Source of the DNA: a virus
Lineage: Duplodnaviria; Caudoviricetes
Direction: 5' to 3' (one strand)
IMG/VR virus record: IMGVR_UViG_3300009680_000012
Span: 438 to 64,437 of that record
DNA length: 64,000 bases
The notes below the pieces were generated by a model. The model did not search any database and was not told the origin of the DNA. It saw only the letters and a program-made list of their open reading frames with translations. Made by a program: the position numbers and the translations under genes. Shown here one piece after another: positions 3,212-26,848 of the stretch (its first letter is position 1; each line of letters starts with the position of its first letter).

Positions 3212-4084
3212 ATGGAGTATATCGGTATTGATGTAGGACGGCACACTACCAAGGCGGTAGGGGATAATGGTATTGTATATACCTTTCCCAGTAAAGTGGG
3301 TAGTGCCAGGGACTTGCGGTTGGATAGTAATTTGGATTATTTGGTTAATATTGAGGATACTGATTACTTTGTGGGCTGGTTGGCAGAAGAGGCCAGGGAT
3401 AAACGGGAAATGGCGAGTGCCAGTAAGTTGCATGATGAAACCAGGATACTTTTCCTAACTGCTTTCTGTCTGGCTTCTAATCGGGGCAGTCTTAATAATC
3501 CTTTGGTTACTGTGGGATTACCCATTGCACAGCGTACCCCGGAGAACAAAACCAAGTTACAAGAACTGCTTAACGGAGTGTGGGAGGTACAGGTAGGCGA
3601 TAAACCAGCTAAACTGTTTACCAATAACAATGATCTGGTTATTGTGGCCGAGGGGGTTGGTGCTTGGTTTGACCTGTTGCTGGATAACCAAGGAAGGATT
3701 AAGAATGAATCTTTGTTAGAGGTTCCGGTTATTAGGATACTGGATTTGGGGAGTCGTATGTTTAACTACTGTACCATATTAAAGGGCAGGGTACATGACC
3801 TGGACAGTGGCAGTTTAAACTATGGGTACATGGAAATGGAGCATGGGGATATCGTTGCGGAAGCGTTGGCTCGGAGACTGTTTGCTGACCTGACTAAAAG
3901 AATATCTTCCCTTAATAGGAATGATATGGTAATACTTTGCGGTGGTGGAGCATATAATATGAAAGAAGCGTTGGGGCAATACTTTAGTCAGTTAAAGTTA
4001 GTAGATGATCCGGTTACTACCAATGCCAAAGGTTACAGAAAGTTGGGAATTGTTTATGCCAATCAGAAAGGTAATCTACTTTAA
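3212..4084 (+). CDS. parM: ParM/StbA-family actin-like partition ATPase
   Basis: IGIDVGRHTTK (phosphate 1), VAEG (connect), ILDLGSR (phosphate 2), LCGGGA (adenosine) actin-fold motifs. Confidence 0.9.
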   Translation: MEYIGIDVGRHTTKAVGDNGIVYTFPSKVGSARDLRLDSNLDYLVNIEDTDYFVGWLAEEARDKREMASASKLHDETRILFLTAFCLASNRGSLNNPLVTVGLPIAQRTPENKTKLQELLNGVWEVQVGDKPAKLFTNNNDLVIVAEGVGAWFDLLLDNQGRIKNESLLEVPVIRILDLGSRMFNYCTILKGRVHDLDSGSLNYGYMEMEHGDIVAEALARRLFADLTKRISSLNRNDMVILCGGGAYNMKEALGQYFSQLKLVDDPVTTNAKGYRKLGIVYANQKGNLL

Positions 4085-9852: not shown

Positions 9853-9890
9853 TTACACTAAGTGTAACAGCTTGTACATGGAAATGTCAA
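9853..9890 (-). promoter_or_regulatory. sigA promoter of thyX with an overlapping palindromic operator
   Basis: Minus strand TTGACA-N18-TACACT with TG extension; palindrome TTACACT-A-AGTGTAA at 9853-9867. Confidence 0.6.
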
Positions 9891-9894
9891 CCAT

Positions 9895-10062
9895 TTAGAC
9901 TTCCATATAGTTTCTAATCCAAGCAGAAGATTTGTTATTGGGCTTTCTTCTTTTTCTACTATTATTCGACGATCTACTTTTTTTACCTGTAAGACTAACC
10001 ACTGTAACTGCTCGTAGTGGTGCTGGAGATATTTCTCGTAACCCTTCATACTTATTTGGCAT
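9895..10062 (-). CDS. Small basic protein (55 aa)
   Basis: AAGGAGGTG RBS; MPNKYEGLREISPAPLRAVTVVSLTGKKSRSSNNSRKRRKPNNKSSAWIRNYMEV. Confidence 0.55.
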   Translation of the reverse strand: MPNKYEGLREISPAPLRAVTVVSLTGKKSRSSNNSRKRRKPNNKSSAWIRNYMEV

Positions 10063-10141
10063 AAGCAACACCTCCTTATTTTGGTAAAGTATAACATGTA
10101 CAGGCAGTTTTTAAAAGTTTTGTAATGGTAATAAAAAGGTG

Positions 10142-10170
10142 TTGACATTCAGTGTAATGGTTGTTACAAT
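10142..10170 (+). promoter_or_regulatory. sigA promoter
   Basis: TTGACA-N17-TACAAT with extended -10 TG. Confidence 0.8.
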
Positions 10171-10210
10171 GGTTTTACCACATTTTTCACAACTAAGGAG
10201 GTGTCAGTTT

Positions 10211-10414
10211 ATGAGGTTTAAATGTAATTTAGCAGTTGTTTTGGCTAAACGTAAAATGCGTATGGTAGATTTAGTGGACGCAACCGGGGTAGCGTTTCAT
10301 ACTGTACGCAGATATTACCATGACGAAAATATTAAGATGATCGACATGGACGTTATGGCTAAGTTTTGCTCCGTATTGAACTGTCAAATTAGTGATCTAT
10401 TTATATTAGAATGA
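10211..10414 (+). CDS. Cro/CI-type (XRE) HTH regulator
   Basis: LAVVLAKRKM..VDL..ATGVAFHTVRRYY..MAKFCSVLNCQISDLF. Confidence 0.9.
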   Translation: MRFKCNLAVVLAKRKMRMVDLVDATGVAFHTVRRYYHDENIKMIDMDVMAKFCSVLNCQISDLFILE

Positions 10415-10424: not shown

Positions 10425-12653
10425 TTGCATAGGAGAGGGGGGTTTTGTTTGCCGGACTTTAAAGAGTTTCTGCATCATGCCTCAGAACTCCGTTTTCAAT
10501 CTAAATGTTCAATCATACCTTTACGCCACAAGGATAAAATACCAGCAATTTCTTGGGAACGATACCAGCAGAATCCACCAGGGTTAGGAGAAATAGAAAA
10601 CTGGTGGTCAGAAATTACCCAAAAAGAATGCTATAACATTGGGGTAGTTTGTGGGGAAGTCAGTGAAAGGTTGGTTGTAATAGACATAGACCCCCGGCAT
10701 GGGGGGTCTTCAGAAAAGATTGAAAAGGTTTTGGGGTTTAAGCTACCTGCAACAGTGCAAGTGTTAACAGGTGGCGAAGATAACGGGTTACACTACTATT
10801 ATAGAGACTACACAGGAGAATGTGACTTAAAAACTTTTAAACTTATGGATGGGGTAGAGGTACGAGGTAATGGTTCAATGGTCGTTGCTCCACCTAGTAT
10901 CCATCCTGTTACAAATAATGTATATGTTTGGAAGTATTCTCCTTATGATTACGAAATCACACAGTTGCCCAAACAAATAATGGAAATTTCCAAACAGAAG
11001 CAGCAAAGTAAGACAACTGTTGATAATGAAGAATTTGGTGATAAACCCACAGTTCTTGAAATACAAGCAGTAATTTCTGAAATTGACATTATGTTAGAAG
11101 GGGATGCTGGAGAAGAGTCAGGTCTTATTCAATCGTTTATTCATGGTAATTATTTTAGAAGTCGGATTGATGGTTGGGATCGCTCTGGTTGGTCCTATAA
11201 GTTAGCGCGGCTGTTAGTTGAGAATGGTGTGTTTAGCGTCAATGAAAAACGTAAAATAGCAATTGCGGTATATGGTGCAGCAGTACACCAGTCTAAGTTT
11301 AAAGACCGTCCTGATCGTTGGCAAGATTGTATTAACATAACCAAAGAAGCTATAGCAGGAGAAATGACATTAACATTTATCAACGGGCACAGCACAGAAG
11401 AAGAAATAACAGAACCAGAAATTAATACTCCTGTTTTCCCTGTAGAAGCATGTACGGGAATAATTGGTGATATTGCCAAGGGGTTAAGCAAATATTCGGA
11501 ATCTTCTTTATCTTATCTTTTCTTTTCAGCACTTACTGTTTTCAGCACACTGGTATGTGGTAACTATACATTGGATACCAGTCTTAGGGTTAAACCTACA
11601 ATGTACACTATTCTTTTGGGTGAGAGTGGTTTAAGCAGGAAGTCTGTGGCTATTAAGTCTGTCGTAGAATTTTTTGCTGATGCTTTAGGCGACACGTTCA
11701 TTGAGAGAGTGTTTAGTGGTTACTTCGGTAGCGGTGAAGGAATACTTCGAAAGTTGTCTACGTTAGGAGAAAAGAACCCCAAAGGTTTAGCACAGCTATT
11801 GTGGTATGTAGACGAGTTTGAAGAAGTAATGAGTCGTGGTAGTATGGAAGGTAGTGTGTTAGCTCCAGTATTACAGCAGTTGTATGAAGATACTAACTTT
11901 GAGTATTACTCATTAAGCAAGTCGTTGAGTGTTGGTAACGCCTACTTAAATATTATTAGTGCTTCTACGATAGATACCTTCAATTCTATGTGGTCAGGCA
12001 AAATGACCGAAGGCGGTCTGTTCAACCGAATGTGGTTAGTAGCTCCTGAAGATACTGAAAGAATGGCTATACCTGATTCGTTTGGTGATTCTCTGGATTA
12101 TTTGAAAGATGCTCTAAAAGAATTGGTATTACAAATTGATGCTGGCCCTTGTATTAGCTTTGGTGACAAGACGGTTAAAGTACCACATACGAAAACAATT
12201 GTTATGTCACCAGAAGCTAAAGAACTTTGGAGTTCGTTTTACTTACAGGATTTGCTAAACATGATACGTAGTGACCCTGAATGTGCTAGGCGTTTAGATG
12301 CTTATGGATTACGTTTAGCAATTTTATTATCGTTAAGCAAAGGGGAACTAGAAGAAATAAGTGCGGATACTATTCGTGAAGTGATTATGCTTTTACGTTA
12401 TGAATATTTGGTTAGAGTAGATTTAAAGCCACCTGACGCTAAAAATGATATAGCTAGAATTGAACAGATAATAATGAGAAAACTACAATCAAGTAAGGAA
12501 GTTAATCGCAGAGAATTATACCGCTTGGGTGTGTGCCAAAGGTACGGTACCGGTATGTTTGAGAAAGCTCTGGAGAATTTACATAAAACAGGATTTGTTA
12601 CTATTAAAAGGGCTAAGGGGGATCGCGTAAATGTTTTTGTAGAAAAGATATAA
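10425..12653 (+). CDS. Bifunctional primase-polymerase (Prim-Pol) fused to a DUF3987-like helicase domain
   Basis: YNIGVVCG..LVVIDIDPRHGG, TGG..GLHYYY, VEVRGNGSMVVAPPSIH; C-terminal LLGESGLSRKS and DEFEE motifs. Confidence 0.88.
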   Translation: MHRRGGFCLPDFKEFLHHASELRFQSKCSIIPLRHKDKIPAISWERYQQNPPGLGEIENWWSEITQKECYNIGVVCGEVSERLVVIDIDPRHGGSSEKIEKVLGFKLPATVQVLTGGEDNGLHYYYRDYTGECDLKTFKLMDGVEVRGNGSMVVAPPSIHPVTNNVYVWKYSPYDYEITQLPKQIMEISKQKQQSKTTVDNEEFGDKPTVLEIQAVISEIDIMLEGDAGEESGLIQSFIHGNYFRSRIDGWDRSGWSYKLARLLVENGVFSVNEKRKIAIAVYGAAVHQSKFKDRPDRWQDCINITKEAIAGEMTLTFINGHSTEEEITEPEINTPVFPVEACTGIIGDIAKGLSKYSESSLSYLFFSALTVFSTLVCGNYTLDTSLRVKPTMYTILLGESGLSRKSVAIKSVVEFFADALGDTFIERVFSGYFGSGEGILRKLSTLGEKNPKGLAQLLWYVDEFEEVMSRGSMEGSVLAPVLQQLYEDTNFEYYSLSKSLSVGNAYLNIISASTIDTFNSMWSGKMTEGGLFNRMWLVAPEDTERMAIPDSFGDSLDYLKDALKELVLQIDAGPCISFGDKTVKVPHTKTIVMSPEAKELWSSFYLQDLLNMIRSDPECARRLDAYGLRLAILLSLSKGELEEISADTIREVIMLLRYEYLVRVDLKPPDAKNDIARIEQIIMRKLQSSKEVNRRELYRLGVCQRYGTGMFEKALENLHKTGFVTIKRAKGDRVNVFVEKI

Positions 12654-12660
12654 GAAAAAC

Positions 12661-12689
12661 TTGACTAACCTGTAATTTTTAGTTATACT
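12661..12689 (+). promoter_or_regulatory. sigA promoter upstream of the structured leader and late operon
   Basis: TTGACT-N17-TATACT. Confidence 0.8.
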
Positions 12690-12696
12690 TATACTA

Positions 12697-12981
12697 GCTC
12701 TAGGTGTACCCTGGGATACACAACAACGCACTAGGGATGCGTGAGATTGAGGTACTGGACACCTCTTCACGTTTCTGTGGTGCGTTTTTATTTGCGCAAC
12801 CAATAAAGGTTGTATTTTTATACAATATGTTTATAGGCGGGCCTGCACTGGCAGGTCCCCGCGCGGTGACAAAGCCCTGCTCATTACGTGGAAACACGTA
12901 TGGGTGGGGCTTAATGATTACAGGCTCTTGTGGGGATGTACGGTTCTTAAATGCGTGGGGGTGGGACGCTGAACCGTTTTT
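12697..12981 (+). ncRNA. Candidate structured RNA (~285 nt; sRNA or attenuator leader)
   Basis: Starts just after the promoter; six or more stems, e.g. AAGCCCTGCTCAT-T-ACGTG-GAAA-CACGT-ATGGGTGGGGCTT with G.U pairs and a GNRA loop; ends in ACGGTTC..GAACCGT followed by a T-run. Confidence 0.55.
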
Positions 12982-12995
12982 AGGGGGAATACTTT

Positions 12996-13787
12996 GTGCG
13001 TTTCGGTGGGTTTACCAGTTATTCTAAGTTTAAAGAAAGTTGGCAAGGGTATAAAATTCTGCTACCTGTTGACTATAAAGCACTTAATATATACTTAGCC
13101 AATTATCCGGGTACTCCAAAAGAATTTGCTGAACGCCACATTCCTGAAGAGATTAGAGAAAGTACCTACAAAAAATTAATTAGCACTCCTTTATCATACT
13201 GGTGGAATGGCCGGACTAGACAAAGACCTAAAGTTAATATTGATTGGTATTATATACTAGCTCTAGCCCAGGCATTTGGTGTTGACCCTTGTTTGTTCTT
13301 TGATGAACTTAGTTACTATACAGAACTACGTGAAAAGAAAACCTACAAGTATTATTATGGTGCTAAATTCCACAAGATTCCTTTTACTGCGTGGCAACAA
13401 GGTTTATCTGTAGATGCACTAATCCCCCACTATTTTTATGCTAATAAAGAACCAGAAGAAAGAAGAAAATTATTTATTAAATATAATCTGGTTCCACATT
13501 TTTCTGGGACTAATCGTAAAACTACGACAGCAACCTATCGTATTAACGTGCTATTGGATGTGTCAGAGAAATTAGGTATTCCTACTAAGGATATGTTTAT
13601 TCAGGAAAGACGGGTTGAGCTTAGTTGTTTTGGGGCTATACATAATGCTTTGATGTTAATGTCCGAGAGTGATCTTAAATTATATTATGCTATCGCTGAA
13701 GTAATAGCGTCTAAGAAGTTTCATAATGACAATGATCTTAAAGAAGCCTTTTGTACTTTGGTAGACCATCGGCATAGGTGGGGGTAG
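12996..13787 (+). CDS. Protein with two degenerate XRE-like HTH repeats
   Basis: YYILALAQAFGVDPCLFF and INVLLDVSEKLGIPTKDMF both resemble XRE C-terminal helices. Confidence 0.5.
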   Translation: MRFGGFTSYSKFKESWQGYKILLPVDYKALNIYLANYPGTPKEFAERHIPEEIRESTYKKLISTPLSYWWNGRTRQRPKVNIDWYYILALAQAFGVDPCLFFDELSYYTELREKKTYKYYYGAKFHKIPFTAWQQGLSVDALIPHYFYANKEPEERRKLFIKYNLVPHFSGTNRKTTTATYRINVLLDVSEKLGIPTKDMFIQERRVELSCFGAIHNALMLMSESDLKLYYAIAEVIASKKFHNDNDLKEAFCTLVDHRHRWG

Positions 13788-13791
13788 ATAT

Positions 13792-14187
13792 ATGACTAAA
13801 AAGTTAGCTGTTAAACGAGAATTAAATGAAGAACTGATTGAATTAATCCAGAATATTGACGATAAGATTATTTCTTTATCTAAGAATAAAGGCAAGGTTA
13901 CTGACGATGACTTCAGGTGGGCGTTCAAGAACGCCCTTACTTTTGAGGAATACCTGCGCACATTTAAGGAACGGTTAGCTGCTAGTGCCACAGCCTACGC
14001 TCCGGCTGCCTTGGACGCTGTGGGTAGGAAAGCTGCCGCCGGGGATGTTAAAGCTGCTCAGGTTGTATTTAATATGTTGGGTGCTTTAGAGAAAGCCGGA
14101 GGTAGTGGTGCAATAAATATGACCCAGGTTAATGTAAACGTACCCACCTTACGGGATTTGGAAGAAGGTAAAGTTATAGATGCCTGA
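13792..14187 (+). CDS. Terminase small subunit (putative)
   Basis: Overlaps the terL start; ALGRKAAAGDVKAA-like helical motif; size and position fit. Confidence 0.7.
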   Translation: MTKKLAVKRELNEELIELIQNIDDKIISLSKNKGKVTDDDFRWAFKNALTFEEYLRTFKERLAASATAYAPAALDAVGRKAAAGDVKAAQVVFNMLGALEKAGGSGAINMTQVNVNVPTLRDLEEGKVIDA

Positions 14188-15898
14188 TTTTTTGGGGGCT
14201 AAGTTTGCAGAACAAGATTATAAAGAATATTTAAGGCTCTTGTGTGATGAGTATTTGTACAAGTTATACCCCAAAAGTATTGCTGAACAAGCCAAAGAAA
14301 TACCCTTGTGGGGTAAGGCAGGCTTACGCCGCCAGCTAGGGGAAAGAAGTGTGGAATTCTTTGCGCGGGCTTATCATCCAGAATATTTTGAATTCCCTGT
14401 TGGATGGTTCCATGAACGGGCGTATGCTGAAATAACTGGTTTGTTGCGAATGCCTCCTTCTCGTGCGAGAATGGCTCGGGCATGGCCTAGAGGGTATGCT
14501 AAGAGTACCATCTTTAACTTCTTTACCCCGGAGTATGCTTCTCTTAATGCACGTAGAGCTTTTACTTTAGAGTTATCTGATACTGAAACTCAAGCGTTAG
14601 GTTTCTTGAATGATATAAGAACCTCCTGCGAAGGTAATGATCATGTACTTACTGATTATGGGGACATCCGGGGGTCAATTTGGCGTAGTGATTTGCTTAC
14701 TATCGAGAACGCTCAAGGGCGTTCTATTATTATGGCCGCTGGAGCAGAGAGCAGTATTTTGGGTACCAGGAAAGCACAAAACAGACCTAGCTTAGTTATC
14801 TTGGATGACCTGGAAGATTTGCTATCAGTACAGACAGTGGAACGTATTAACAAACGCCACAACTGGTTAATGCGTACCTTGATGCCTATAGGCAACGCGC
14901 GCACAGATTTTATTTATGTAGGTACAATCCTATCATACGATTGTGTGTTCGATAGGATTTTGAATAGTCATGCCTGGGATGCCCAGAAATTTTCATCCAT
15001 TATTACTTGGAGTGAATCTCCTTTATGGACTGAATGGAAGAATATTTATACCAATTTAAGTAAGAGTAAAGAAGAGCGTGAGCAAGAATCCTTTGAATTT
15101 TACGAAGAGCATAAGGATGAATTGTTACACGGTACTGAGGTTTTGTGGCCTGAAGGTAAGCCTTACATAACTTTAATGCGAGAATTTACAGAGATTGGTG
15201 ATCTAGCATTTCAGGCAGAGTATCAGAACGAACCGATTAACCCGGCTGATTGTATCTTTGATAAGGAGTGGTTTAAATACTACGATGATGATACCTTTAA
15301 AACTGTCAATATTATAGACGTTGTGGGTGCAGTAGACCCCTCATTAGGTAAGACTAGGCTGAGTGACTTCACAGCAATTATCACAGTAGGTAGAGGTGAT
15401 GACGGTTATATTTATGTTCTTGATGCGGTAATAGAACGGATGCCCCCGGATAGAATTGTGGAAACGATACTGCAAAAAGCACAAGAATATAAGTATACCC
15501 GGTTTGGGGTTGAGGTTAATCTATTCCAGGAGTTGCTTCGCTTGCAGTTAATTAGAGAAGCACAACAGCGCAGAATTTTTCTACCAACCACAGAAGTTAA
15601 GCACAACAAAGATAAGGTGTTGAGAGTACAGACTTTAGTACCTTACATTAAAAACGGTTTCATTCGCTTTAGAAAAAATCAGCTAGAGCTTTTAAATCAG
15701 TTAGGTAACTTCCCTAAAGGTAGGTACGATGACGGCCCTGACTGTTTGGAAACTGCGGTCAGGCTTTTAGGTAGGGGAACAACGCACGGTTCGTTGGAAA
15801 CTGGAATAGACCCTACGGGCAGACGTTATCGTAGATTTACAGATGACGATGATGATTATGTACACACACGTTCTAAGTTCGATTGGATTAATTTCTAG
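14180..15898 (+). CDS. terL: Terminase large subunit
   Basis: PRGYAKST Walker A, ILDDLED Walker B, AVDPSLG..SDFTA and DDGPDCLE nuclease motifs. Confidence 0.95.
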   Translation: MPDFLGAKFAEQDYKEYLRLLCDEYLYKLYPKSIAEQAKEIPLWGKAGLRRQLGERSVEFFARAYHPEYFEFPVGWFHERAYAEITGLLRMPPSRARMARAWPRGYAKSTIFNFFTPEYASLNARRAFTLELSDTETQALGFLNDIRTSCEGNDHVLTDYGDIRGSIWRSDLLTIENAQGRSIIMAAGAESSILGTRKAQNRPSLVILDDLEDLLSVQTVERINKRHNWLMRTLMPIGNARTDFIYVGTILSYDCVFDRILNSHAWDAQKFSSIITWSESPLWTEWKNIYTNLSKSKEEREQESFEFYEEHKDELLHGTEVLWPEGKPYITLMREFTEIGDLAFQAEYQNEPINPADCIFDKEWFKYYDDDTFKTVNIIDVVGAVDPSLGKTRLSDFTAIITVGRGDDGYIYVLDAVIERMPPDRIVETILQKAQEYKYTRFGVEVNLFQELLRLQLIREAQQRRIFLPTTEVKHNKDKVLRVQTLVPYIKNGFIRFRKNQLELLNQLGNFPKGRYDDGPDCLETAVRLLGRGTTHGSLETGIDPTGRRYRRFTDDDDDYVHTRSKFDWINF

Positions 15899-15998
15899 GG
15901 GTGTTTAGCTGCCAGTAAAGATATGCAAGCCTGACATATTCGTAAAGACACATGAACCTGTAAAAAATTAACCCTTCGGGGAAAACTTAGGAGGTATT

Positions 15999-16385
15999 AT
16001 GAAAGAGTTAAAAAGCGGATTATTGACCAACAAGTATACTGAGGTGTATCACGAGGACCCCGAGCAAATGAAATATAACGCTCCGCATCATTTTCTTGTT
16101 ATTAGGTCTAAGAGATCACCCGAAACTCCCAGGGAGGACGCAATAAACTTGGTCGGCCAAGTCGATTTCCAGGAAGGACCTATTAAGGAATGCGGCGTTA
16201 ACGGTGTGGCCAATGAAGATTTAATCAATATGGTTATCTGTCGTCTTGAACACTTCCAGCGTTCAAAGTACGCCTGCCGGGAAAATGAACGTGCAATCAC
16301 CAAACTGGAAGAGGCGTTGATGTGGCTTAGAAAGCGCACCAATGAGCGCGAAGCGCGTGGTGTGGAGGGAACGCATACGGTTTAA
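15999..16385 (+). CDS. tad1: Tad1-family anti-Thoeris signalling-molecule sponge
   Basis: FQEGP..GVNGVANEDL..V..RLEHFQ....CREN..AITKLEEALMWL..RT..R..RGVEGT follows the Tad1 C-terminal signature; MKEL start and similar length (~125 aa). Confidence 0.85.
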   Translation: MKELKSGLLTNKYTEVYHEDPEQMKYNAPHHFLVIRSKRSPETPREDAINLVGQVDFQEGPIKECGVNGVANEDLINMVICRLEHFQRSKYACRENERAITKLEEALMWLRKRTNEREARGVEGTHTV

Positions 16386-16416
16386 ATTTTAGAGAAAGAA
16401 ATAGGGAGGTTTTATT

Positions 16417-16629
16417 TTGAAGGAGTGGCTGGTGGTTTTAGTATTAATCTGGACACCCCTGGTTTGTATAAGCTCCGTGATTATCGGGGCTTATATTATG
16501 TGGTGCAAAGAAAAAGGCGCAAACCCTCTTAATGATGTGAAGATGTTTGTTAACCGTAACGATGACACTAAATGGAACCCTAAAGTAGATGGGTATAAAG
16601 AAGATAATATGCCGGGATTTTATGATTAA
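16417..16629 (+). CDS. Small membrane protein
   Basis: N-terminal TM helix; AGGGAGG RBS. Confidence 0.7.
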   Translation: MKEWLVVLVLIWTPLVCISSVIIGAYIMWCKEKGANPLNDVKMFVNRNDDTKWNPKVDGYKEDNMPGFYD

Positions 16630-16655
16630 ACCTCCAAGGAAAGGGGGGATAATGT

Positions 16656-18824
16656 GTGCTAGACGAGCTTCTTAAAGAAGAAGAATCAGAGCAAGAGCCT
16701 ATGTCAAATGACCTGGAAGAATTAGAAAGATATACGCGATTAGTACAGCGCGTAACCAATCACCTGGATTGGTGTAAGGGTACTGCGGATAGACAGGATT
16801 TTGAAAAACGCTGTACTGATTCACAAAATTTCTGGCAGGGTAAACATTGGAGTGGTATCAGTTCTTACGGGATTCCTGGGCGTAGTGCTGAGCGTAAAAA
16901 GGTCAAGCCATCCCCAGTAGACAACTTTTTCTTTTCACAAATTGAGGGCATTGTGGGGGATGTATGTGACCAGCCAGCGGATATTATCGTAGAACCCACA
17001 GAGGAATCAGATGAAGAAATAGCCACCCTGTACAACGATGTGGCTAACCACATTTGGCACGTTAACCGGGGAGACAAAGCCCTTAAGTTTCAGGTACGCA
17101 GGGGCATTCTCTACGGGCCTATGGTAGCCAAGGTGTTTTGGGATTCAGAATGGGCGGGAGGTGCGAGTAACCCCTATGTGGGGGAGGTACGAGTAACCAT
17201 GTTTCCTCCTACCCAGTTATTTGTGGACCCGAGAATTAAAGCAGTAGAACCCGGCGTTATTCAACAGGCCGGGTTTGTTATTTATGGAGTACGCAGGTCA
17301 CTCCACCAGATACGAGAGACTTACCCTGAACGGGGTTCTTTTGTTACTGCTGATTCATACGCCAGTTATATCTCAACCCTAGACCCTTATGAAAGTACAT
17401 ATTCCACAGACCCGCATGATTCGTCGGCTTTGGTTATTGAGTATTACTATCGGGGCAAACCCCTAGCACCTAAATTTCCGGCAACTTTGGAGTATGACGA
17501 ATTCAAGGATAACCGGGGGGAAGGGGTTCATTTGGCGGTAGTAGCCGGAAATGAATTGCTGCGGCATGTACCGTATATAGCTCCCAAGTACCCGTTTGTA
17601 ATGGAATGGATGTATCCCAGTGACGATAGTATCTACTGTTATGGTGATGGTCATTTCATGCTGGTACCACAACTGGTAATTAACAAGAGTAATGAGATAG
17701 CTATTGAAGGTAACGCAATTCAAGCCTACGGTAACTGGGTTACAGACGAAGGGAACGTGCGTGATGTAGCAACGTTTCAACGGTTAGCTCAGACTGGGGG
17801 CGCATTGCTATCCTTTGTGGATATTAACCGGGCTAGACGCGATATGGCGGGTGGAGTAGCTTCTTCAGTATTTAACCAGTATAACCAGGAACAACGTGCT
17901 ATGGAGACTGTAACGGGTAGGCTGGATATTTCACAAGGACGTGCACCAAGGGGCATACGGGCAGCGTCAGCTATTTCTATGCTGCTTAGTCAGGCAGCAG
18001 GTAGAATTAAATCCCGTTCTGATGCAGTCTCCAGTTTTGTGCAACAGATTATGGAGTTGTCTTTGATGTTTGCTGGTAAGCACTACCTTGATGAACGAAC
18101 GCTTAGGTTAAAAGGTCCGAACGGCAGACCAGTGTGGAAAAACATTAGTGCTGATAATTTAAGGAAGATTAAAGTATATCAGAGTCCGACTACTGGCATG
18201 ATGGTTGAAGAAGAATACATTCCTGAGTTTGACATTAAAGTGATTGCCGGGGCAGAGACTCCAACCTCCAGAGCGTACTACGCAGAAATGGCTACGCAGT
18301 TATTTCAGGCCGGGGCAATTGACCAGGAAGCTCTATTGGAAGTACACAAGTTTCCACGTTGGCGTGAGGTACTTGTTCGGATGCAGACCAAAGCACAGGC
18401 TATGCAACAAGCGCAAGCACCTGCTCCTGGTAGTATGGGAATGCCCCAAGGTCCGCCGGATATGGGAGGTATAGGTTTACCACAAGGTATACCAGATATG
18501 GGACAAGGGGCTGGAGCAATACCCCCTGAGCTTTTGGATATGTTGATCCAGAGAGGGGAACAACCAGCACCAGAGGAACAGATGAACCCGGAAATGTTTA
18601 TTCAGTCTTTGCTGGAGGAAGGTGTACCTCCTGAAGCAATACAGCAGATTCTAATGGAGTTAATGGCTGGTGGACAAGAACAACCGGGGATGCCGGGGCC
18701 AGCACCAATTAATCCCGGTTATAACCCTGAAGTAAATCCACAGAGTAATATCGGTGGGGGTGGTGGCTTAAATGTTTTAGCAGACTTAGTCAATAGTTTA
18801 CAACGCGCTAATACCGGGTACTAA
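16656..18824 (+). CDS. Portal protein (P22-like)
   Basis: Follows terL; FWQGKHW, IIVEPTEESDEEIA..L, LFVDP, ETVTGRLDISQG motifs; low-complexity Q/P/G/M tail. Confidence 0.88.
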   Translation: MLDELLKEEESEQEPMSNDLEELERYTRLVQRVTNHLDWCKGTADRQDFEKRCTDSQNFWQGKHWSGISSYGIPGRSAERKKVKPSPVDNFFFSQIEGIVGDVCDQPADIIVEPTEESDEEIATLYNDVANHIWHVNRGDKALKFQVRRGILYGPMVAKVFWDSEWAGGASNPYVGEVRVTMFPPTQLFVDPRIKAVEPGVIQQAGFVIYGVRRSLHQIRETYPERGSFVTADSYASYISTLDPYESTYSTDPHDSSALVIEYYYRGKPLAPKFPATLEYDEFKDNRGEGVHLAVVAGNELLRHVPYIAPKYPFVMEWMYPSDDSIYCYGDGHFMLVPQLVINKSNEIAIEGNAIQAYGNWVTDEGNVRDVATFQRLAQTGGALLSFVDINRARRDMAGGVASSVFNQYNQEQRAMETVTGRLDISQGRAPRGIRAASAISMLLSQAAGRIKSRSDAVSSFVQQIMELSLMFAGKHYLDERTLRLKGPNGRPVWKNISADNLRKIKVYQSPTTGMMVEEEYIPEFDIKVIAGAETPTSRAYYAEMATQLFQAGAIDQEALLEVHKFPRWREVLVRMQTKAQAMQQAQAPAPGSMGMPQGPPDMGGIGLPQGIPDMGQGAGAIPPELLDMLIQRGEQPAPEEQMNPEMFIQSLLEEGVPPEAIQQILMELMAGGQEQPGMPGPAPINPGYNPEVNPQSNIGGGGGLNVLADLVNSLQRANTGY

Positions 18825-18895
18825 TGCCTCCCTGTGGGCATAAACACAGCGGTTAATTACCCGACAACGGGGTTAAGTTGAAGGAGGTTTTATTT

Positions 18896-19750
18896 ATGTC
18901 TAAGGAATTTGATCTTTATGAGCCTACAGGTATGCTGGACTTGCAGTTATTTGGCTTGGATGATGACGATGATGGTATTGATACTGAGCTGGATGAACTG
19001 CTTAAAGACCTGGATGGTTCAGATGATGACGCTGATGATGACGATGATGACATTTTCAGCGGGCTTGAGGATGATGATGACGATGAACCTCAATCGTCAG
19101 TTAAAAAACGCATTTCAAATGCGGTACGTACTCGCTTAGCCCGAGAAAAGGCTAAACAACAACGGGAAGAAGAAAACTTTTCAAAGATGTTTGGGATAAC
19201 CCCCAAGCAAGCCTATGAAATGGCGTTAGCCCAGGCAGTACAGAACCAGAATAACCCAGTACCGCCACAACCTAATAACGCTCCCCCGATGCCCCAGAAT
19301 GGTGCGCCGATTACTGATCCACGCTTGGCCAGTGCTTTAGAATATGTGGAATCGCGCCGGGTGCAGGATGCTATGGAAGCAGAAGCAATGGAATTCGCGC
19401 ATAAGTTTCCAGGGGTTACGTTTGAGCAGTTGCCTGAAGAGGTTAAGATTCGACGGTCTAAGGGTGGTGTTTCTCTTGCAGAAGCGTACAGCATGTATCT
19501 GGGAGGTAATCTGGAGAAAATTGTTACGGAGGCTAAGAAGAAGGGTGTCAAGGAAACCCTGTTGGGTGTGACCAAGAGCAGAGCAGTAAAAACTGAAGGG
19601 GCAGATTTCGGAGCATCATTTAATAATGATGTGTTTGATAGCTTTGAGCCTGAAGATCAAGAGATTGCCCGGAGTGCTTTTGGTATGACACCTAAAGAAC
19701 TCGCTAAGTTTAACAAAGTAGCGCAAAAGGCTAGAGAACTTGGTATGTAA
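18896..19750 (+). CDS. Capsid scaffolding protein
   Basis: LDLQLFG motif, poly-Asp tract, coiled coil; lies between portal and capsid genes. Confidence 0.75.
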   Translation: MSKEFDLYEPTGMLDLQLFGLDDDDDGIDTELDELLKDLDGSDDDADDDDDDIFSGLEDDDDDEPQSSVKKRISNAVRTRLAREKAKQQREEENFSKMFGITPKQAYEMALAQAVQNQNNPVPPQPNNAPPMPQNGAPITDPRLASALEYVESRRVQDAMEAEAMEFAHKFPGVTFEQLPEEVKIRRSKGGVSLAEAYSMYLGGNLEKIVTEAKKKGVKETLLGVTKSRAVKTEGADFGASFNNDVFDSFEPEDQEIARSAFGMTPKELAKFNKVAQKARELGM

Positions 19751-19768
19751 TATGGAGGTGAATGCTTA

Positions 19769-20188
19769 ATGTTTAGACTTGTTAACCAATATAGTGAGGC
19801 ACCTATTTTCATAACGCTGCCTGTTACTGACAATGAAGCAATTTATGACGGACAGGCATTGATTTTGAGTAGCGGTAAGTTAACCAAAGCTGCTGCTGGT
19901 GGTGACATTGGCTTTATAGCTCAGCAGGATGTGGCGGCTGGTTTAGGTAACACCTGTCGGGTAATTGTAGTAACTCCTAACCAAGTGTGGGAAGTTGATT
20001 ATGTAGGTAGTGCTGATGCTGGTTTTATTATTGGTTGTGACTCTGCGGACCTTGATACTGACGTTGGTAGTGGCGTTGGTTTAAATCTTAATTCTGCTGA
20101 TATTGTTGGTGGTCCTTGTGCCATCCTTAAGAAAGACGCTACCAATAAGAAATGCCATGTCATTGTTAAGAATCGGCAAATGTCCTAA
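19769..20188 (+). CDS. Capsid decoration/cement protein
   Basis: Small beta-rich protein immediately upstream of the major capsid gene. Confidence 0.6.
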   Translation: MFRLVNQYSEAPIFITLPVTDNEAIYDGQALILSSGKLTKAAAGGDIGFIAQQDVAAGLGNTCRVIVVTPNQVWEVDYVGSADAGFIIGCDSADLDTDVGSGVGLNLNSADIVGGPCAILKKDATNKKCHVIVKNRQMS

Positions 20189-20218
20189 ATTGTTAAGTTG
20201 AAATGGGGGTGTTAATTT

Positions 20219-21154
20219 ATGGGAGTTATGACTAGAGAACGGTTCCAAAACCTGCTTGAACCCTATGTGTGGAAAGTCTATACCCAGACCATGAACCAAG
20301 AAGGCGACATAATTCCACAGCTTTATGACGTAAATACCTCTACTAAAGCGTTTGAGAAATTTACGGGAATCGGTTCCTTGGGACTGATGAAAAAATGGAA
20401 TGGTACGGTATATTACGATGATGTTCGTGCCCTGTGGGATAAGACTTATATCCACCAGAAATACAGCATGGGTATTATGATTGAACGCGACCTGTGGGAT
20501 GACGCGCAATACTCTGAGGTTAAAGACCGCGTTAATCAGGTAATGCTTTCTATCTTTCGTACCCGGCAGATTCATGCTACTATCCCGTTTGAGAAAGCTT
20601 TTGTAACTTCTTTTACGGACGATGAGGGTGATACCATTAGTACCGCAGGACCGGACGGTGTGGCTCTTTGTGCTGTTAATCATCCGACCTTTCCTGGTGC
20701 TTCTGCTGCTGGTGATTTACAGAGTAACTTGGGTTCTTCGGCGTTGAGCTTGGATGCTTTAGAAACAACCAAACTTGCTATGAAGGAATTCAAAGATGAC
20801 CGGGGTAAGAAACTTCTGATTGTTCCCGATACAGTTATTATTCCTCCTAATTTGGAGTACCAGTTTGACGAAATGATGAAGTCGGAGGGTCGTTATGACA
20901 CGGCTAACCGGGTTGACAATGTTCGTCGGGGTGCATACAAAAAGATCGTTCTGGATTTCTTGACTGACACTAACGCTTGGTTTATGGTTGACTCTAAACT
21001 GATGAAGCAATACCTGAAGTGGTTTGAGCGTAGAAAGCCTACTCCGGAGAGGGACGAGGACTTTGACACTGAAGTTCTTAAATGGAAATTTATTTCCAGA
21101 TATTCCTTTGGCTTTCATGGTTGGCACTTTGTATATGGAAACAATCCTGGGTAA
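20219..21154 (+). CDS. Major capsid protein (Mu gpT-like, HK97 fold)
   Basis: STKAFEK..G.G.M..W..TVYYD, KYSMGI.I.R.LWDD, LIVPDTVIIPPNLE, AWFMVD, RYSFGFHGWHFVYGN. Confidence 0.9.
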   Translation: MGVMTRERFQNLLEPYVWKVYTQTMNQEGDIIPQLYDVNTSTKAFEKFTGIGSLGLMKKWNGTVYYDDVRALWDKTYIHQKYSMGIMIERDLWDDAQYSEVKDRVNQVMLSIFRTRQIHATIPFEKAFVTSFTDDEGDTISTAGPDGVALCAVNHPTFPGASAAGDLQSNLGSSALSLDALETTKLAMKEFKDDRGKKLLIVPDTVIIPPNLEYQFDEMMKSEGRYDTANRVDNVRRGAYKKIVLDFLTDTNAWFMVDSKLMKQYLKWFERRKPTPERDEDFDTEVLKWKFISRYSFGFHGWHFVYGNNPG

Positions 21155-21241
21155 TTCGGGTTTTTCGTGTGACATTACCTCTTAGGTAGTGCCGTAAATT
21201 TAGGTGGGGGGCTTAATAGCCCCCTGCTACATTAGGAGGGA

Positions 21242-21739
21242 TTGTTAATGGGTATTACACATTTTGACGCTATCGCACTTGCAGAGGGTAAACTTTATGC
21301 AGGCAAAAAAGGTGAAGAGGTTTTGGTACTTCAAGCAACACCAAGGCTGGAGTGTATTTCTAAAGAGTGTGCTATTACAGGTTTTACTGATGGTGGTGGT
21401 ACGTCTGGTTATATAGACTTTGCTGCTAATTCTTTACCCGCCGGAGCTATCCCACTAGGATGGAAAGCTGTGGTAACAGAGGGATTTGACGGTAATAGTT
21501 CTGCCACAATTTCCGTGGGTGTGTCTGGTGACACTGATCGGTTTAGTGCTGATACCGCGCAATCGGTTGCTGCTGCTGGAGTAGTTGGTTCTTCGGCCCT
21601 GGCTGCGGATGCTTGTGACGGCATTGGTGCGGCACAGACCCCCAGAGTTACTGTTACTACTGCTTCAGACTTTACTGCTGCTAAAAGTGACGGTGACGGA
21701 GTTATGACGGTTTACCTGTATTACTTGCGTACTGCTTAA
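21242..21739 (+). CDS. Putative virion structural (decoration) protein
   Basis: Ala/Gly/Thr-rich beta protein following the capsid gene. Confidence 0.55.
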   Translation: MLMGITHFDAIALAEGKLYAGKKGEEVLVLQATPRLECISKECAITGFTDGGGTSGYIDFAANSLPAGAIPLGWKAVVTEGFDGNSSATISVGVSGDTDRFSADTAQSVAAAGVVGSSALAADACDGIGAAQTPRVTVTTASDFTAAKSDGDGVMTVYLYYLRTA

Positions 21740-21794
21740 TCATTAATCCGGGAGGTGAGTGTGGGGTATTCTTTAGGGGATACCCCACAATTTT

Positions 21795-22415
21795 ATGAAT
21801 TTAATCGGTTTGTGTAATTTATATTGGTGGTCTATAAACGATAACCCGGATAACCCTTTGCTTATAAGTAAAGAAATGATTGTACAGTTTTTAAATGATG
21901 CTGTTAAAGAATTGTCTCAGGTTGTGGATTATAAAAAATATGCTGAGATAATTCCTGAAGATAGTACAGGAATAATACCCCTTCCTACAGATGTAATTAA
22001 AATAGAAAAAGCTAGATGGAGTGACAAAGACCTGTCACCTATCTCTGATATACATACGGCCTTACTTTATAAACCTGATCGTAAGGTGTCTCAATACTAT
22101 CATTTAAACCTAGCTACTGTACAGGTGTTTCCTGCCCCCAAAGAAGATGATACGGGGCCATTAAAAATCTGGTATAAAGCGTATTTACCTGCGCTAATTA
22201 ATGACAATGATGCCCCTGTGGATATTCCAGAAGAATACCACAAGGATTTAGCTCTAGTTTTTGTGCGCGCGCAACATGCGTTTAAAATGGGCAGGTACTC
22301 TGAATATCAATTTTTGGCTAACCTTTGGGAAGATATAAAGAAAGAACTGGGTGGAGAGTATACCAGTCGAGTAGTTACTGTAATAGACGAAAACCAGGGA
22401 AGGTTTAATTGGTAG
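21795..22415 (+). CDS. Head-tail adaptor (podovirus-type)
   Basis: IVQFLNDAVKEL, LPTDVIKIEKAR, IPEEYHKDLALVFV; position fits. Confidence 0.7.
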   Translation: MNLIGLCNLYWWSINDNPDNPLLISKEMIVQFLNDAVKELSQVVDYKKYAEIIPEDSTGIIPLPTDVIKIEKARWSDKDLSPISDIHTALLYKPDRKVSQYYHLNLATVQVFPAPKEDDTGPLKIWYKAYLPALINDNDAPVDIPEEYHKDLALVFVRAQHAFKMGRYSEYQFLANLWEDIKKELGGEYTSRVVTVIDENQGRFNW

Positions 22416-22426
22416 GTGGTGTTTAA

Positions 22427-24850
22427 GTGCGTAAATCCTTAAGAAAAAGTATAGGCAACCCTAGTATTATTCCCGAATATGTTTCTTGGGAAGGGTTAGT
22501 TGGGGTTGATTTGATTAGCGACAACACCAGACTGAAGAGAAATCACGTAGTGTGGGCTACCAATGCTGACTTTATCTACAATAAAATGGGAGCTATTTCT
22601 AAAGCTCCGGGGGCTGGCTCTTTATTTTTTGTACCTCCCCCAATAAAGGGAGCGCATATAGCCGACCTAAATAATAGACAGTATATGCTTATTGCCAACA
22701 CCACTGATTTATATGTTATTCCTGGTGGTAGGCAAATATTTGTAACTACTACTAAAGATGATTGGGATACAGGAACCTTTACTGATTTAGTAGCGTCATC
22801 TGATGGTAAATTACAGTTTGATACAAATTGTTTTGGTACTGGTACTTGGGTATCTCCTTCTTATTGGTTATCGTCTATTGTCTATGAATTGCTTTTTACT
22901 TATACCCAAAGCGTACCTAAGTTTTCTAGTATTACGGTAGAATACTCAGTAAGCAATAACAATACTGATTGGTCTGAATGGTTAATTATTCCTACTTCGG
23001 GTATACCTGATGAAGTTGGTAAATATATACGTTTTAAATTTACGGTTATTCGTGAGCCATATTGGGAAAGTTCAATTAGTAAAGCAGACGCCTTCATTTG
23101 TGGAGAGGACACTGACATAATAGGTACTGATGAAGATAGCGCAATTTTATTTTTAGAAACTTTATTTGATGATGCAACTAATACAATATACCCGGATGTT
23201 AACGTAGACAGATATGAGTTTTACACCAGGGTAGAGTTTGAACCAGTAAATGAACCAGAACTTATTTATACTGGCTTTACAGGTAATAAAGTAAGGTTTA
23301 CTGATTACATGGATAAAACTTATATTGCCGCTGGAGGTAGGCCATTAGTATTTAATGGTACTACTATACGCCCGGTAGGAGTAGACCCCCCTACCACTAA
23401 AGGTACGTTAGCGGCTTCCGCAGAAGCAGGAAACCCTGATGGTGACTATTACATGGTGTACACTTATGTTAATGAGGATAACGTAGAATCTACCGCAAGT
23501 CCGGTATCTGATAAACTTACTGTAAGTGAATACAAATTAGATTATTCTGATATAGCGGTAGGGCCAGCAGGTACAAAAGCACGTAGAATTTACCGTAGTA
23601 TGTCTGATGCACCAGGAGTATTCTACCTTGTGGCAACTATAGACAATAATACGGATACTACATACACCGGGGATAACTACTCTGATTTAGAATTAGCGGC
23701 TAATGCTTTGTTGGAAGATGATAACCAAGTACCCCCTAACGCATCTATAGTTTACTTACATTTGGATACTATGTTTTATGTGTCCAGTGATGTAGAAAAT
23801 CAGTTATGGTTTTCTAAACCCGGTAGGCCAGAGCATGTTCCCAATACTTCTGAAAAACAGTTTTACATATATTTTCCTTCTGGGGTTAAGTTAGTGCGTT
23901 CTTTTTCCAACAGGCTATTTGTTTCTGGTTTTAATTTTACTAAATTTGTATCGGGTACGATATTCCACAGTGATCCTACTGTTTCAGATATTGTAATCAA
24001 AGATTTGGGCAGGCTAGGCGCGTTAAACCAAGAGTGTGGTACATTCCTTAATTCTCCTAAAGGGTATATGGGACTGGCTATATTAACAGATACGCAAGAA
24101 ATTTTCAGTATTTATCCCACATTGGTTGAGGATATTTTTAACGTCACACCTGTATCTGTTAATGTATCTTCTATATTAAGGGACAATGTTGGTTGGGATA
24201 CCAGCTTAGTGTACGCTTTTCAAGATAACTTATACATTGTGTTTAATCCTGGTGATCCTAACTTACCGGACAGGTCTGTGGCTGTCTATAATACGATTCA
24301 TAAAGAATGGCAGGGATTTAGGTTTTTAGATATTGCTTGTTATATATCCACTCCTTGGAGATTGTACTCTATTTCAGAAAGTGGTTCGGTACTATTTCAT
24401 TTTACTAATGATGATTTGTTAGTTTGGGGCAAACGGTGGGGTGGTTTTTACGGTTATCTACCCACAAGTATAGAAGAAAATCCGGTTGAGTTTGTGGTAG
24501 ATACGGGATACAAAACCCCGAACAAAATGCAACGGGCAAGATTTTCTTACTTACAGCTTATCGTTGCCGAAGACAGCTTAACAGATAACACAGAAGCAAC
24601 AGTTGTGGTGGATGGCTTAGCACAAACAATACCGTTGGGGCCAATTAATAACTGGAATGTTAGTTCTTTAAGTTCTCCGGGGTATGGTATTGGTAGACAG
24701 GACGCAGTAATATCACCGCTATTCCCATTGAATTTACCTCCAGGAAGGTTTGTTGGGGTAAGGATAAAAGATACATCTAATAATCCTTTAACTATTTACG
24801 GTATAGTTGTGGTTTGTGAACCTGTTTATTCCATGTGGGGAGGGATTTAA
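22427..24850 (+). CDS. Tail nozzle/tube protein
   Basis: 807-aa beta-rich protein after the adaptor; LWFSKPGRPEH-like propeller motif. Confidence 0.65.
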   Translation: MRKSLRKSIGNPSIIPEYVSWEGLVGVDLISDNTRLKRNHVVWATNADFIYNKMGAISKAPGAGSLFFVPPPIKGAHIADLNNRQYMLIANTTDLYVIPGGRQIFVTTTKDDWDTGTFTDLVASSDGKLQFDTNCFGTGTWVSPSYWLSSIVYELLFTYTQSVPKFSSITVEYSVSNNNTDWSEWLIIPTSGIPDEVGKYIRFKFTVIREPYWESSISKADAFICGEDTDIIGTDEDSAILFLETLFDDATNTIYPDVNVDRYEFYTRVEFEPVNEPELIYTGFTGNKVRFTDYMDKTYIAAGGRPLVFNGTTIRPVGVDPPTTKGTLAASAEAGNPDGDYYMVYTYVNEDNVESTASPVSDKLTVSEYKLDYSDIAVGPAGTKARRIYRSMSDAPGVFYLVATIDNNTDTTYTGDNYSDLELAANALLEDDNQVPPNASIVYLHLDTMFYVSSDVENQLWFSKPGRPEHVPNTSEKQFYIYFPSGVKLVRSFSNRLFVSGFNFTKFVSGTIFHSDPTVSDIVIKDLGRLGALNQECGTFLNSPKGYMGLAILTDTQEIFSIYPTLVEDIFNVTPVSVNVSSILRDNVGWDTSLVYAFQDNLYIVFNPGDPNLPDRSVAVYNTIHKEWQGFRFLDIACYISTPWRLYSISESGSVLFHFTNDDLLVWGKRWGGFYGYLPTSIEENPVEFVVDTGYKTPNKMQRARFSYLQLIVAEDSLTDNTEATVVVDGLAQTIPLGPINNWNVSSLSSPGYGIGRQDAVISPLFPLNLPPGRFVGVRIKDTSNNPLTIYGIVVVCEPVYSMWGGI

Positions 24851-24851
24851 T

Positions 24852-25706
24852 TTGTCTTTTAAATACTTAACTAAACAGTTTTCTGCGAGTGTTGGGCAAA
24901 GGTCAAGAGGTTATGCTGGCCCAGATACGCTTGAAGATGAATTGGATAGACTGTATGCAAGTCTAGACCCTACAAAGACTATCAACTTTCCTGATGGTAC
25001 TACTAGAGTAGGTGGTCTACATGTAGAAAATTTATCAGAAAGTTTTGCGCTGCCTGACACATATATTGGAAATCGTACTGTTAACGATACTGAAACAGTA
25101 AACACAAATACAGGCACACTTACTAAAATATTATCTATGTTTGCGACAATGATTAAAAGGATTGTTGGTGGTGCTAACTGGCGTTCCGCAGTTCCTATAA
25201 CATTAACACAAATTGATACTACATTAAATCAGCTTAATACATCAACAGGCCAAATAGGAAGTTTGTTAGGAGAAGTTGGTACTACTTTAGGGCAGCATGT
25301 AGAAGATACAGAAAACCCACATGAGGTAAATGCTGAACAGATAGGCGCGCTGGTTAGTATCAATAATGTTTCAAATGCCGGAGGTAATATAAATCTTGTC
25401 AGGTCCGCCATGAATGAGACTCTTGATATATCTTTTACGTCAGATAATTTGAGTAAACAGATAGAGGTGTGGGCAGACATTAACAACGGCAAGGTTACTA
25501 ATGCAATGCTTGGTGCTGATGTTAAAGTAGGCAGTTTGTCGGACTTAGAAACTACAGTTAAAACATCTGTTGTAGCAGCAATAAATGAACATTTGAATAA
25601 TGATGATACTCCTCACGTGTTTAAAGATGAAGCACTAAGCGTGTGGTATAGGTTTGTTGTAGATAATGGTGAACCTTTTCTAGAGGTTGTGGGGGTGGGG
25701 CAGTAA
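24852..25706 (+). CDS. Tail-associated structural protein
   Basis: GGGGAGG RBS before TTG; HVEDTENPHEVNAEQIG is a motif seen in tail-fibre shafts. Confidence 0.6.
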   Translation: MSFKYLTKQFSASVGQRSRGYAGPDTLEDELDRLYASLDPTKTINFPDGTTRVGGLHVENLSESFALPDTYIGNRTVNDTETVNTNTGTLTKILSMFATMIKRIVGGANWRSAVPITLTQIDTTLNQLNTSTGQIGSLLGEVGTTLGQHVEDTENPHEVNAEQIGALVSINNVSNAGGNINLVRSAMNETLDISFTSDNLSKQIEVWADINNGKVTNAMLGADVKVGSLSDLETTVKTSVVAAINEHLNNDDTPHVFKDEALSVWYRFVVDNGEPFLEVVGVGQ

Positions 25707-26845: not shown

Positions 26846-26848
26846 GGG

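Follow-up and report, generated by a model that had tools for sequence, protein, structure and literature searches.

A putative promoter-proximal termination gate with a lineage-specific structured leader ahead of the late operon of an uncultured phage

We analyzed a non-coding gap of 342 bases (12654-12995) in a 64,000-nucleotide stretch of phage DNA (Duplodnaviria; Caudoviricetes), hereafter the window, which corresponds to bases 438-64437 of the 64,437-bp IMG/VR virus record IMGVR_UViG_3300009680_000012. The record is graded complete and linear, and carries no end information. The gap lies between a Prim-Pol/DUF3987 replication gene and the DNA-packaging genes. The replication gene (10425-12653, plus strand; Pfam PF09250, 2.6e-25, and PF13148, 1.4e-11) is the last of a short co-directional early unit of two genes, the other being a Cro/C1-type helix-turn-helix (HTH) gene at 10139-10414; the promoter of this unit (10142-10170, plus strand) has 11/12 consensus matches, with a TG. 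On the other side of the gap, the first late gene (12996-13787, plus strand) encodes a 263-aa protein and is followed by an open reading frame (ORF) of 131 aa and then by the large terminase gene TerL (14180-15898, plus strand; phrog_38, 1.2e-92), whose product shows ~33% identity to Mu-like terminases. All substantial ORFs from 12996 to 43651 are on the plus strand, and among them are genes for a P22-type portal, a Mu gpT-like head protein and a cell-wall peptidase. The gap heads this late operon of ~31 kb (packaging, head, tail, lysis). The host of the phage is probably a Gram-positive or anaerobic digester bacterium.

The gap opens with a sigma-A/sigma-70-type promoter (TTGACT-17-TATACT; 12661-12689, plus strand), which begins 8 nt past the stop codon of the primase gene and matches the consensus at 10 of 12 positions. 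Promoters and terminators were assigned throughout by consensus match, and in the promoter scan this was the top plus-strand site of the region 12000-31999, which bears out a preliminary description of the locus, made from the sequence alone, that had placed a sigA promoter here. No other promoter of the window that agrees with the consensus at 10 or more of 12 positions precedes such a long hairpin with a U-run (T1, described below). From its position, transcription is expected to start at ~12696. A second TATACT hexamer, read from the sequence, abuts the -10 element in the discriminator position (12690-12695, plus strand); it is upstream of the expected start site, a placement unlike that of a lambda-type sigma-dependent pause element. 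The hexamer and the start region also form an exact 14-base repeat (12690-12703), found again at 13253-13266 within the first late gene. This second copy has no promoter context, and the match (BLAST E 0.07) may be due to chance.

In computed folds the transcript begins with a small weak hairpin (12699-12715, plus strand, -5.3 kcal/mol), whose bases can alternatively take part in a CTCTAG/CTAGGG stem that competes with the base of the next element. This element, T1 (12725-12793, plus strand), is a long imperfect hairpin with 24 pairs, four of them G.U (-32.2 kcal/mol), followed by UUUUUAUUU. The hairpin itself spans 12725-12786, and its 9-bp base (12725-12733 with 12778-12786) is flush against the UUUUUAUUU tract; the lower stem has a pairing probability of 0.96-1.00 in the nascent transcript, and a separate terminator scan returned T1 at +26..+96 (-31.6). 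T1, predicted to be a strong intrinsic terminator, lies ~95 nt from the expected start and could, from its position, end early transcription coming from the primase gene as well. Directly downstream, T2 (12796-12821, plus strand) consists of a 6-bp hairpin (12796-12813) and AUUUUUAU; it was found in the terminator scan and is a predicted weak back-up terminator (-6.6 kcal/mol, pairing probability 0.87-1.0). Finally, T3 (12940-12981, plus strand, -10.9 kcal/mol) is made of a 7-bp outer and a 4-bp inner stem with a G-rich loop (12940-12977), and of a UUUUU run (12977-12981) that lies 14 nt ahead of the GTG start codon at 12996. It is the weakest of the three, with a large interior loop, a pairing probability of 0.66-0.76 and no fold excess when taken alone (z -0.16).

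The preliminary description had listed five stems in the gap, and all of them exist and appear in the computed folds (12699-12736, where CTCTAG/CTAGGG encloses GTGTA/TACAC, 12739-12772, 12836-12860, 12872-12912 and 12940-12977). It had missed that the second stem is the upper part of T1, and that T2 follows. The terminator-like end that it proposed just before the first late gene is present as the stem and U-run of T3, but folding predictions make T3 a marginal terminator-like element just 5' of the ribosome-binding site. Its suggestion of a transcript of ~285 nt did not hold up: since T1 is a predicted strong terminator at ~+95, the default product would be of ~95-125 nt, and an RNA of ~285 nt would be expected only as a read-through species.

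The gap 12654-12995 is truly non-coding. An overlapping 107-aa ORF at 12704-13027 was rejected as a gene: it has no homologue among 5.8 billion clustered proteins, no Pfam or PHROG match and no ribosome-binding site, and it runs across the start of the 12996 gene, which is conserved. A search with Rfam (release 15) gave no match at the gathering score in the whole window, and with relaxed filters on 12400-13300 (901 bases) there were no matches within 12654-12995 at E<=10; three weak matches all fell in the flanking genes. A search for tRNA and tmRNA was also negative. The leader is an outlier in structure. The segment 12696-12995 folds with -118.7 kcal/mol, compared to -91.2 +/- 4.6 for dinucleotide shuffles (z -5.94), and none of the 200 shuffles folded as well. 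In sliding windows of 150 nt, z was -3 to -4.5 across the gap and ~0 in the flanking genes. Taken separately, the 100 nt at the 5' end scored z -4.5 and 12832-12940 scored z -4.85. On all these points (non-coding, highly structured, from no known Rfam family) the preliminary description proved correct.

The structure also depends on the strand. In the 3' half of the gap the plus strand folded clearly better than the minus strand in the sliding scan, and the long hairpins owe their strand specificity to G.U pairs: T1 has -32.2 kcal/mol on the plus strand and -20.9 on the minus strand, and a second long hairpin, P2 (12872-12912), has -26.9 and -16.2, respectively. This bias argues for a function as RNA rather than as DNA. 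The GC-rich part of the gap has a GC content of 0.49-0.55, versus 0.30-0.40 in the surrounding region of the genome; GC-rich patches are present in nearby coding DNA too, e.g. at 13900-14100.

Relatives of the locus were sought through TerL, the primase and the 263-aa protein, and by profile searches. The packaging module (263-aa family, a gene of ~135 aa, TerL) was found in three other lineages only: one type represented by six near-identical contigs (L002 type), and two contigs from metagenome-assembled genomes (MAGs), L091 and L092. The L002 type is the nearest syntenic relative, and its Prim-Pol/DUF3987 homologue is 45% identical to that of the window over the full length. In L092, the pair of HTH and Prim-Pol genes is inverted relative to the late genes. 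The leaders of these relatives are only 75-90 nt long, and each has a near-consensus promoter, an intrinsic terminator and the ribosome-binding site of the first packaging gene. In L002 the promoter (2076-2104, 11/12 matches) is followed by an 11-bp terminator (2123-2148) plus a U-run and by the start codon at 2183. In L091 the promoter (1026-1055, 10/12 matches, with TG) is followed by a terminator with six GC pairs and a GAAA loop (1110-1127), the U-run of which is directly 5' of the ribosome-binding site. In L092 the promoter (3719-3747, 12/12 matches) is followed by a terminator (3785-3803) plus a long U-run, and by an ATG at 3841. Since there is no space for a promoter between terminator and gene in L002 and L091, their packaging genes appear reachable only by read-through.

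The sequences of the leaders are not shared between the window and the relatives, save for a 16-base blastn match (L002 2148-2163). The promoter-then-terminator design is therefore, as far as can be read from the four sequences, conserved across the lineages with this module, and the RNA sequence is not. The L002 type lacks both structured blocks, and 12696-12795 and 12826-12985 appear to be lineage-specific additions. A 16-base palindrome that overlaps T2 (12810-12825, plus strand) includes the only 14 bases (12811-12824 and neighbours) that recur in the leader of the L002 type. We rejected this palindrome as a repeated operator, as it is unique in the window and its two-mismatch copies occur as often as expected by chance.

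Wider searches for relatives of the RNA were negative. Neither the 263-aa protein nor the RNA had close relatives in phage records or in IMG/VR. Blastn with the RNA gave nothing in 50,697 phage records and 72,556 plasmids, and blastn and nhmmer against 80 TerL-related loci returned only the 16-base match in L002. An exact-pattern scan of IMG/VR for the hairpin P1 (12836-12860) gave nothing. A covariance model of 12832-12940 recovered only itself from 91 sources (L010 scored E 0.34, in coding DNA) and nothing from two MAG genomes. In a sample of 401 genomes belonging to the phylum of G002, BLAST yielded only chance-level matches of 18-47 bases, mostly in the AT-rich part. The stretch is kept in two independent assemblies of the phage, which are near-identical, so that this carries little weight. 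Among more distant TerL relatives, the 37-41% TerL clade seemed enriched in promoter-terminator cassettes located ~2.3 kb 5' of TerL, which we rejected after inspecting L006 and L022: in both, the promoter-like match (TTGACA-17-TATAGT; L006 1579-1607, L022 1146-1174) is inside an ORF whose stop codon precedes the hairpin and T-run. The encoded motif may resemble that of Mor/C-type late activators. Matches of the form TTGACA-17-TATnGT occur at a similar distance from TerL in L005, L010, L011, L016 and L028. Such ORF-internal matches are a trap for promoter scans.

We read the gap as the transcribed leader of the late operon, in which termination close to the promoter would act as a gate, as in lambda PR'-tR', and give this reading a probability of about one half. 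Host RNA polymerase would initiate at the near-consensus promoter 12661-12689 and stop by default at T1 (~+95), with T2 as a back-up, releasing a short RNA. T1 and T2 would also block early transcription arriving from the primase unit, insulating the late block. The late genes would be expressed only upon read-through of T1, T2 and the marginal T3, presumably by means of a phage factor made earlier. We infer from the arrangement of the elements that the promoter fires, that T1 terminates and that read-through is regulated, as well as the kind of agent behind it.

In lambdoid phages, late control relies on the PR' promoter, the tR' terminator and read-through by Q, and the short default transcript is known as "6S", or StxS in Shiga-toxin phages (PMC7547250). 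The gap resembles this system in having a strong, constitutive-looking promoter, an intrinsic terminator within ~100-200 nt, a very long late operon and a short predicted default RNA; the promoter followed by a close terminator was found in the window, L002, L091 and L092. The window differs in having up to three terminators and an extra structured block of ~160 nt. Several observations weigh against a gate of this kind. No -10-like pause element of the lambda type is apparent in the region expected to be transcribed first, and a Pfam search of ~60 ORFs gave no match to Q, N, NusG/LoaP, sigma, RinA/ArpU or Mor proteins, with many ORFs of the window lacking annotation and thus leaving room for a non-homologous Q analogue. 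The terminators might do no more than stop early transcription from the primase unit, while a constant low fraction of the polymerases from the promoter passes through them. The nearest relative lacks the large structured blocks, which are thus not needed for the basic gate, and the comparison covers four lineages only, with consensus matches as the basis for their promoters and terminators.

The same short default product could be an end in itself. The promoter and T1 have the classic anatomy of a small RNA gene, with a consensus promoter, a small 5' hairpin, a long hairpin and a U-tail, and short PR'-tR' transcripts can turn regulatory, as in the case of StxS (PMC7547250). The ~95-nt RNA could then act in trans on host or phage mRNAs, with the late genes transcribed from elsewhere. 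However, the stretch from T2 to the late genes holds no further plus-strand promoter that matches the consensus at 10 or more of 12 positions, and in the relatives the promoter-terminator pair sits directly 5' of the gene, which points to a gate. No target, seed or homologue of such an RNA was identified, and we regard a stand-alone small RNA as quite improbable.

Two further intrinsic terminators were seen within the late block itself, a strong one at 21760-21789 (13-bp stem), 3' of the ORF 21242-21739, and a weaker one at 21146-21160, directly 3' of the Mu gpT-like head gene. The former fits a need for processive read-through; yet partial terminators after capsid genes are common.

Downstream of T2, the structured block 12826-12985 contains the GC-rich hairpin P1 (plus strand, -16.8 kcal/mol), the hairpin P2 (plus strand), of 18 bp with three G.U pairs and a GAAA tetraloop closed by a G-C pair, and T3. 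Folds of transcript prefixes and folds including coding sequence predict an alternative hairpin (12931-12949, plus strand; 12931-37 with 12943-49) that sequesters the 5' strand of T3, and a helix (12858-12865 with 12952-12959) that, together with this hairpin, would compete with T3. The block ends at the ribosome-binding site of the first packaging gene (AGGGGGA and the GTG start, 12982-12998, plus strand), and the conserved N-terminus of homologues confirms that translation starts with the GTG at 12996. In the read-through RNA, the ribosome-binding site and the GTG are predicted to be inside a hairpin (12960-13016), with unpaired probabilities of 0.26-0.40 for AGGG and 0.01-0.31 for GUG. A helix closing the 5' end of the transcript onto the ribosome-binding site was rejected as a truncation artefact, as it disappeared once 40 nt of coding sequence were added. 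Within the termination gate that we favour, this lineage-specific block may provide a second checkpoint that is tunable, given that T3 has competing alternative pairings and that the ribosome-binding site and start codon sit in a predicted hairpin. The 3' block is attenuator-like in this sense; for a single sequence, the T3 alternatives are indistinguishable from chance.

A stronger claim would be that the leader is itself the active element, 12826-12985, or the 5' hairpin with T1, being either a cis-acting RNA that confers terminator resistance (put, EAR or conAn2-like) or a riboswitch or attenuator that senses a ligand or protein and selects either T3 or its competing helices. The strong plus-strand-specific structure, including that of 12832-12940, the long GNRA-capped hairpin, the elevated GC content, the near-isoenergetic alternatives predicted for T3 and the predicted pairing of the ribosome-binding site and start codon all speak for this, and precedents exist in conAn2 (PMC8191782) and in the zipper attenuator of pLS20 (PMC13401043). 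However, T1 and T2 are upstream of the block 12826-12985, which therefore cannot rescue polymerase from them, and the relatives with the same module manage without it. With no RNA homologue found there is no covariation to draw on; alternative pairings are easily found in any G-rich sequence, and the helix joining the transcript's 5' end to the ribosome-binding site was lost upon adding coding sequence. We consider an active leader of this sort unlikely.

Long structured leaders that gate operons of more than 30 kb are known from Gram-positive plasmids (PMC13401043, PMC8191782). The conjugation operon of pLS20 has a 456-nt leader with a zipper-type attenuator (cATT), followed by processive antitermination by the conAn1 protein and the conAn2 RNA (PMC13401043, PMC8191782), the latter being a poorly conserved, GC-rich RNA of ~280 nt (PMC8191782). 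The window resembles pLS20 in its long and structured leader, in which a weak stem-loop comes first and a long imperfect one second, and in the terminator that precedes the first gene of an operon of more than 30 kb. It differs in being a phage and not a plasmid, and in that the long stem is followed by a U-run of its own. Zipper complementarity was not found, and T1 did not lengthen at the cost of T2 or T3 in the prefix folds or the full folds. With respect to conAn, the RNA in the window precedes the first gene, whereas conAn2 follows ConAn1; and the 263-aa product of the first gene has a family of just 15 proteins, seen here only ahead of TerL, a difference that concerns gene context and not a sequence comparison with ConAn1.

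The putL and putR sites of phage HK022 are cis-acting RNA antiterminators of ~70 nt with two defined stem-loops, which act on downstream terminators with no protein factor. The likeness to the window is a general one, consisting of promoter-proximal hairpins in a phage leader, upstream of terminators; put-like action would explain the lack of a recognizable antiterminator. In the window, however, the first large hairpin bears its own U-run. The preliminary description had proposed, besides a novel small RNA, an attenuation or antitermination leader comparable to put or nut. Such a leader fits the recurrence of the promoter-terminator gate in the three related lineages, but the analogy to put and nut is unsupported as stated: no boxA/boxB-like or put-like features turned up, in an analysis that included no search aimed at them.

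Control directly upstream of the terminase genes is also the rule for the RinA, ArpU, LtrC and Alt families of late-operon activators in Gram-positive phages (PMC3753634, PMC3152322). The window differs in having a near-consensus promoter followed by a terminator, and in having no such activator by Pfam or PHROGs. In the activator systems, the promoters are typically inactive unless the phage activator is present.

The GC-rich part of the gap might alternatively work as DNA, as a pac region bound by the adjacent HTH protein and/or by a small terminase. It is directly 5' of the packaging module, the neighbouring gene encodes an XRE-HTH-like protein conserved with TerL, and the combination of a Mu-like TerL with a P22-like portal suggests headful packaging. 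There are also three G-rich direct repeats (12892-12908, 12949-12965 and 12997-13010), and pac sites are lineage-specific. However, the fold advantage is specific to one strand and depends on G.U pairs, which are irrelevant to duplex DNA; the repeats are of small length, with a likeness of only 76-79%; nothing comparable is present in the relatives; and the record is linear with no information on its ends. We hold a pac function to be rather improbable. As an observation in its own right, the plus strand has six G-runs of at least three in ~90 nt here, and the repeats in 12892-13010 could be protein-binding boxes or G-quadruplex-prone sequence.

The structured blocks may also have no function, being a relic insertion, or duplicated terminators that drifted and fold well by chance. 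Their absence from the nearest relative, the lack of homologues in any search and the GC-rich patches in nearby coding DNA would all be compatible with this. The fold excess (z -4.5 to -5.9), which none of the shuffles equalled, and the strand specificity of the wobble-paired long hairpins argue the other way, as does, to a small extent, the persistence of the stretch in both assemblies. We think it very unlikely that the blocks are functionless.

If the late operon is controlled by the termination gate proposed here, the phage would presumably encode a factor for read-through. The 263-aa protein is all-alpha with XRE-type HTH-like domains (AlphaFold pLDDT 79.7). Its family comprises 15 proteins at E<=1e-3 among 1.84 billion representatives, and directly heads the module before TerL in L002 (2183-3025), L091 (995-2188) and L092 (4865-5668), as it does in the window. 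A search with the predicted fold gave no PDB or BFVD match at E<=0.001, and the weak matches were nearly all to lambda-repressor/XRE HTH domains. The 12996 protein is a conserved XRE-HTH-like member of the packaging module and not an evident antiterminator; the family may represent a DNA-recognition subunit of the terminase. Some members have an extra N-terminal extension of ~70-100 residues, winged-helix-like from sequence.

The one lead is a small basic protein of 55 aa with a K/R-rich C-terminus, encoded at 9895-10062 on the minus strand and identified by hmmsearch (E 5.9e-6, with a two-sequence profile). The family (55-64 aa, with a conserved N-terminal half and a K/R-rich tail) has members in the window, in L091 (835-1029) and in L092 (3543-3710). 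In the last two, the gene is immediately upstream of the late promoter-terminator gate, which is also the position of Q relative to its promoter in lambda. In the window, by contrast, it lies on the opposite strand to the gate and 2.6 kb away, beside the early HTH gene, and is followed by a near-consensus promoter (9890-9861, minus strand) with no terminator. Each copy of the gene thus directly precedes a near-consensus promoter. The protein had no Pfam or PHROG match and no usable Atlas match, and the other loci contained no more homologues. By analogy with Q, its position makes it a candidate regulator, though only as a lead. It is conceivable, if improbable, that this small K/R-rich protein is a new kind of antiterminator acting on these leaders, with the block 12826-12985 as its RNA partner or as a second, sensor-type checkpoint.

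A longer ORF was called in a different frame (9858-10148) and overlaps the gene for this protein. The adjacent segment 10072-10170 is a divergent early control region, in which a minus-strand promoter (10115-10088) faces the small basic protein and the plus-strand promoter 10142-10170 faces the early unit.

The gap is a structural outlier, but it is not the extreme of the genome. In a scan of folding energy (MFE, minimum free energy) corrected for composition, the top structure was found at 62050-63350 (and 63850-63937), where 150-nt segments of the minus strand fold with -73 to -83 kcal/mol (z about -5.5 to -6.5). This region contains an 8-nt tandem repeat in seven copies (62978-63037), a perfect 18-bp palindrome (63232-63268), inverted repeats of 21 and 27 nt, duplicated C-rich boxes and four 22-nt iterons. 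Its ORFs gave no convincing Pfam match (one was weak and sub-threshold). We consider 62050-63350 a candidate origin or cluster of non-coding RNAs.

The leader RNA has no known relatives, which limits its wider significance, and the control logic of such a gate is already known. How late genes are controlled is known in detail from lambdoid phages and from a small number of activator families in Gram-positive phages, and hardly from uncultured phages. Here, the clade defined by the packaging module appears to keep a promoter-then-terminator gate while the sequence of the leader is fully replaced between lineages, a pattern that points towards antitermination by a factor without a name in current libraries. 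Four natural leaders (75-300 nt) and one small candidate protein provide a concrete and cheap assay system, and the large folded block lends itself well to asking whether lineage-specific RNA additions have a function. If the small K/R-rich protein did turn out to be the antiterminator, phages of anaerobic digester bacteria would possess a Q/N-like late switch with no homology to the known ones.

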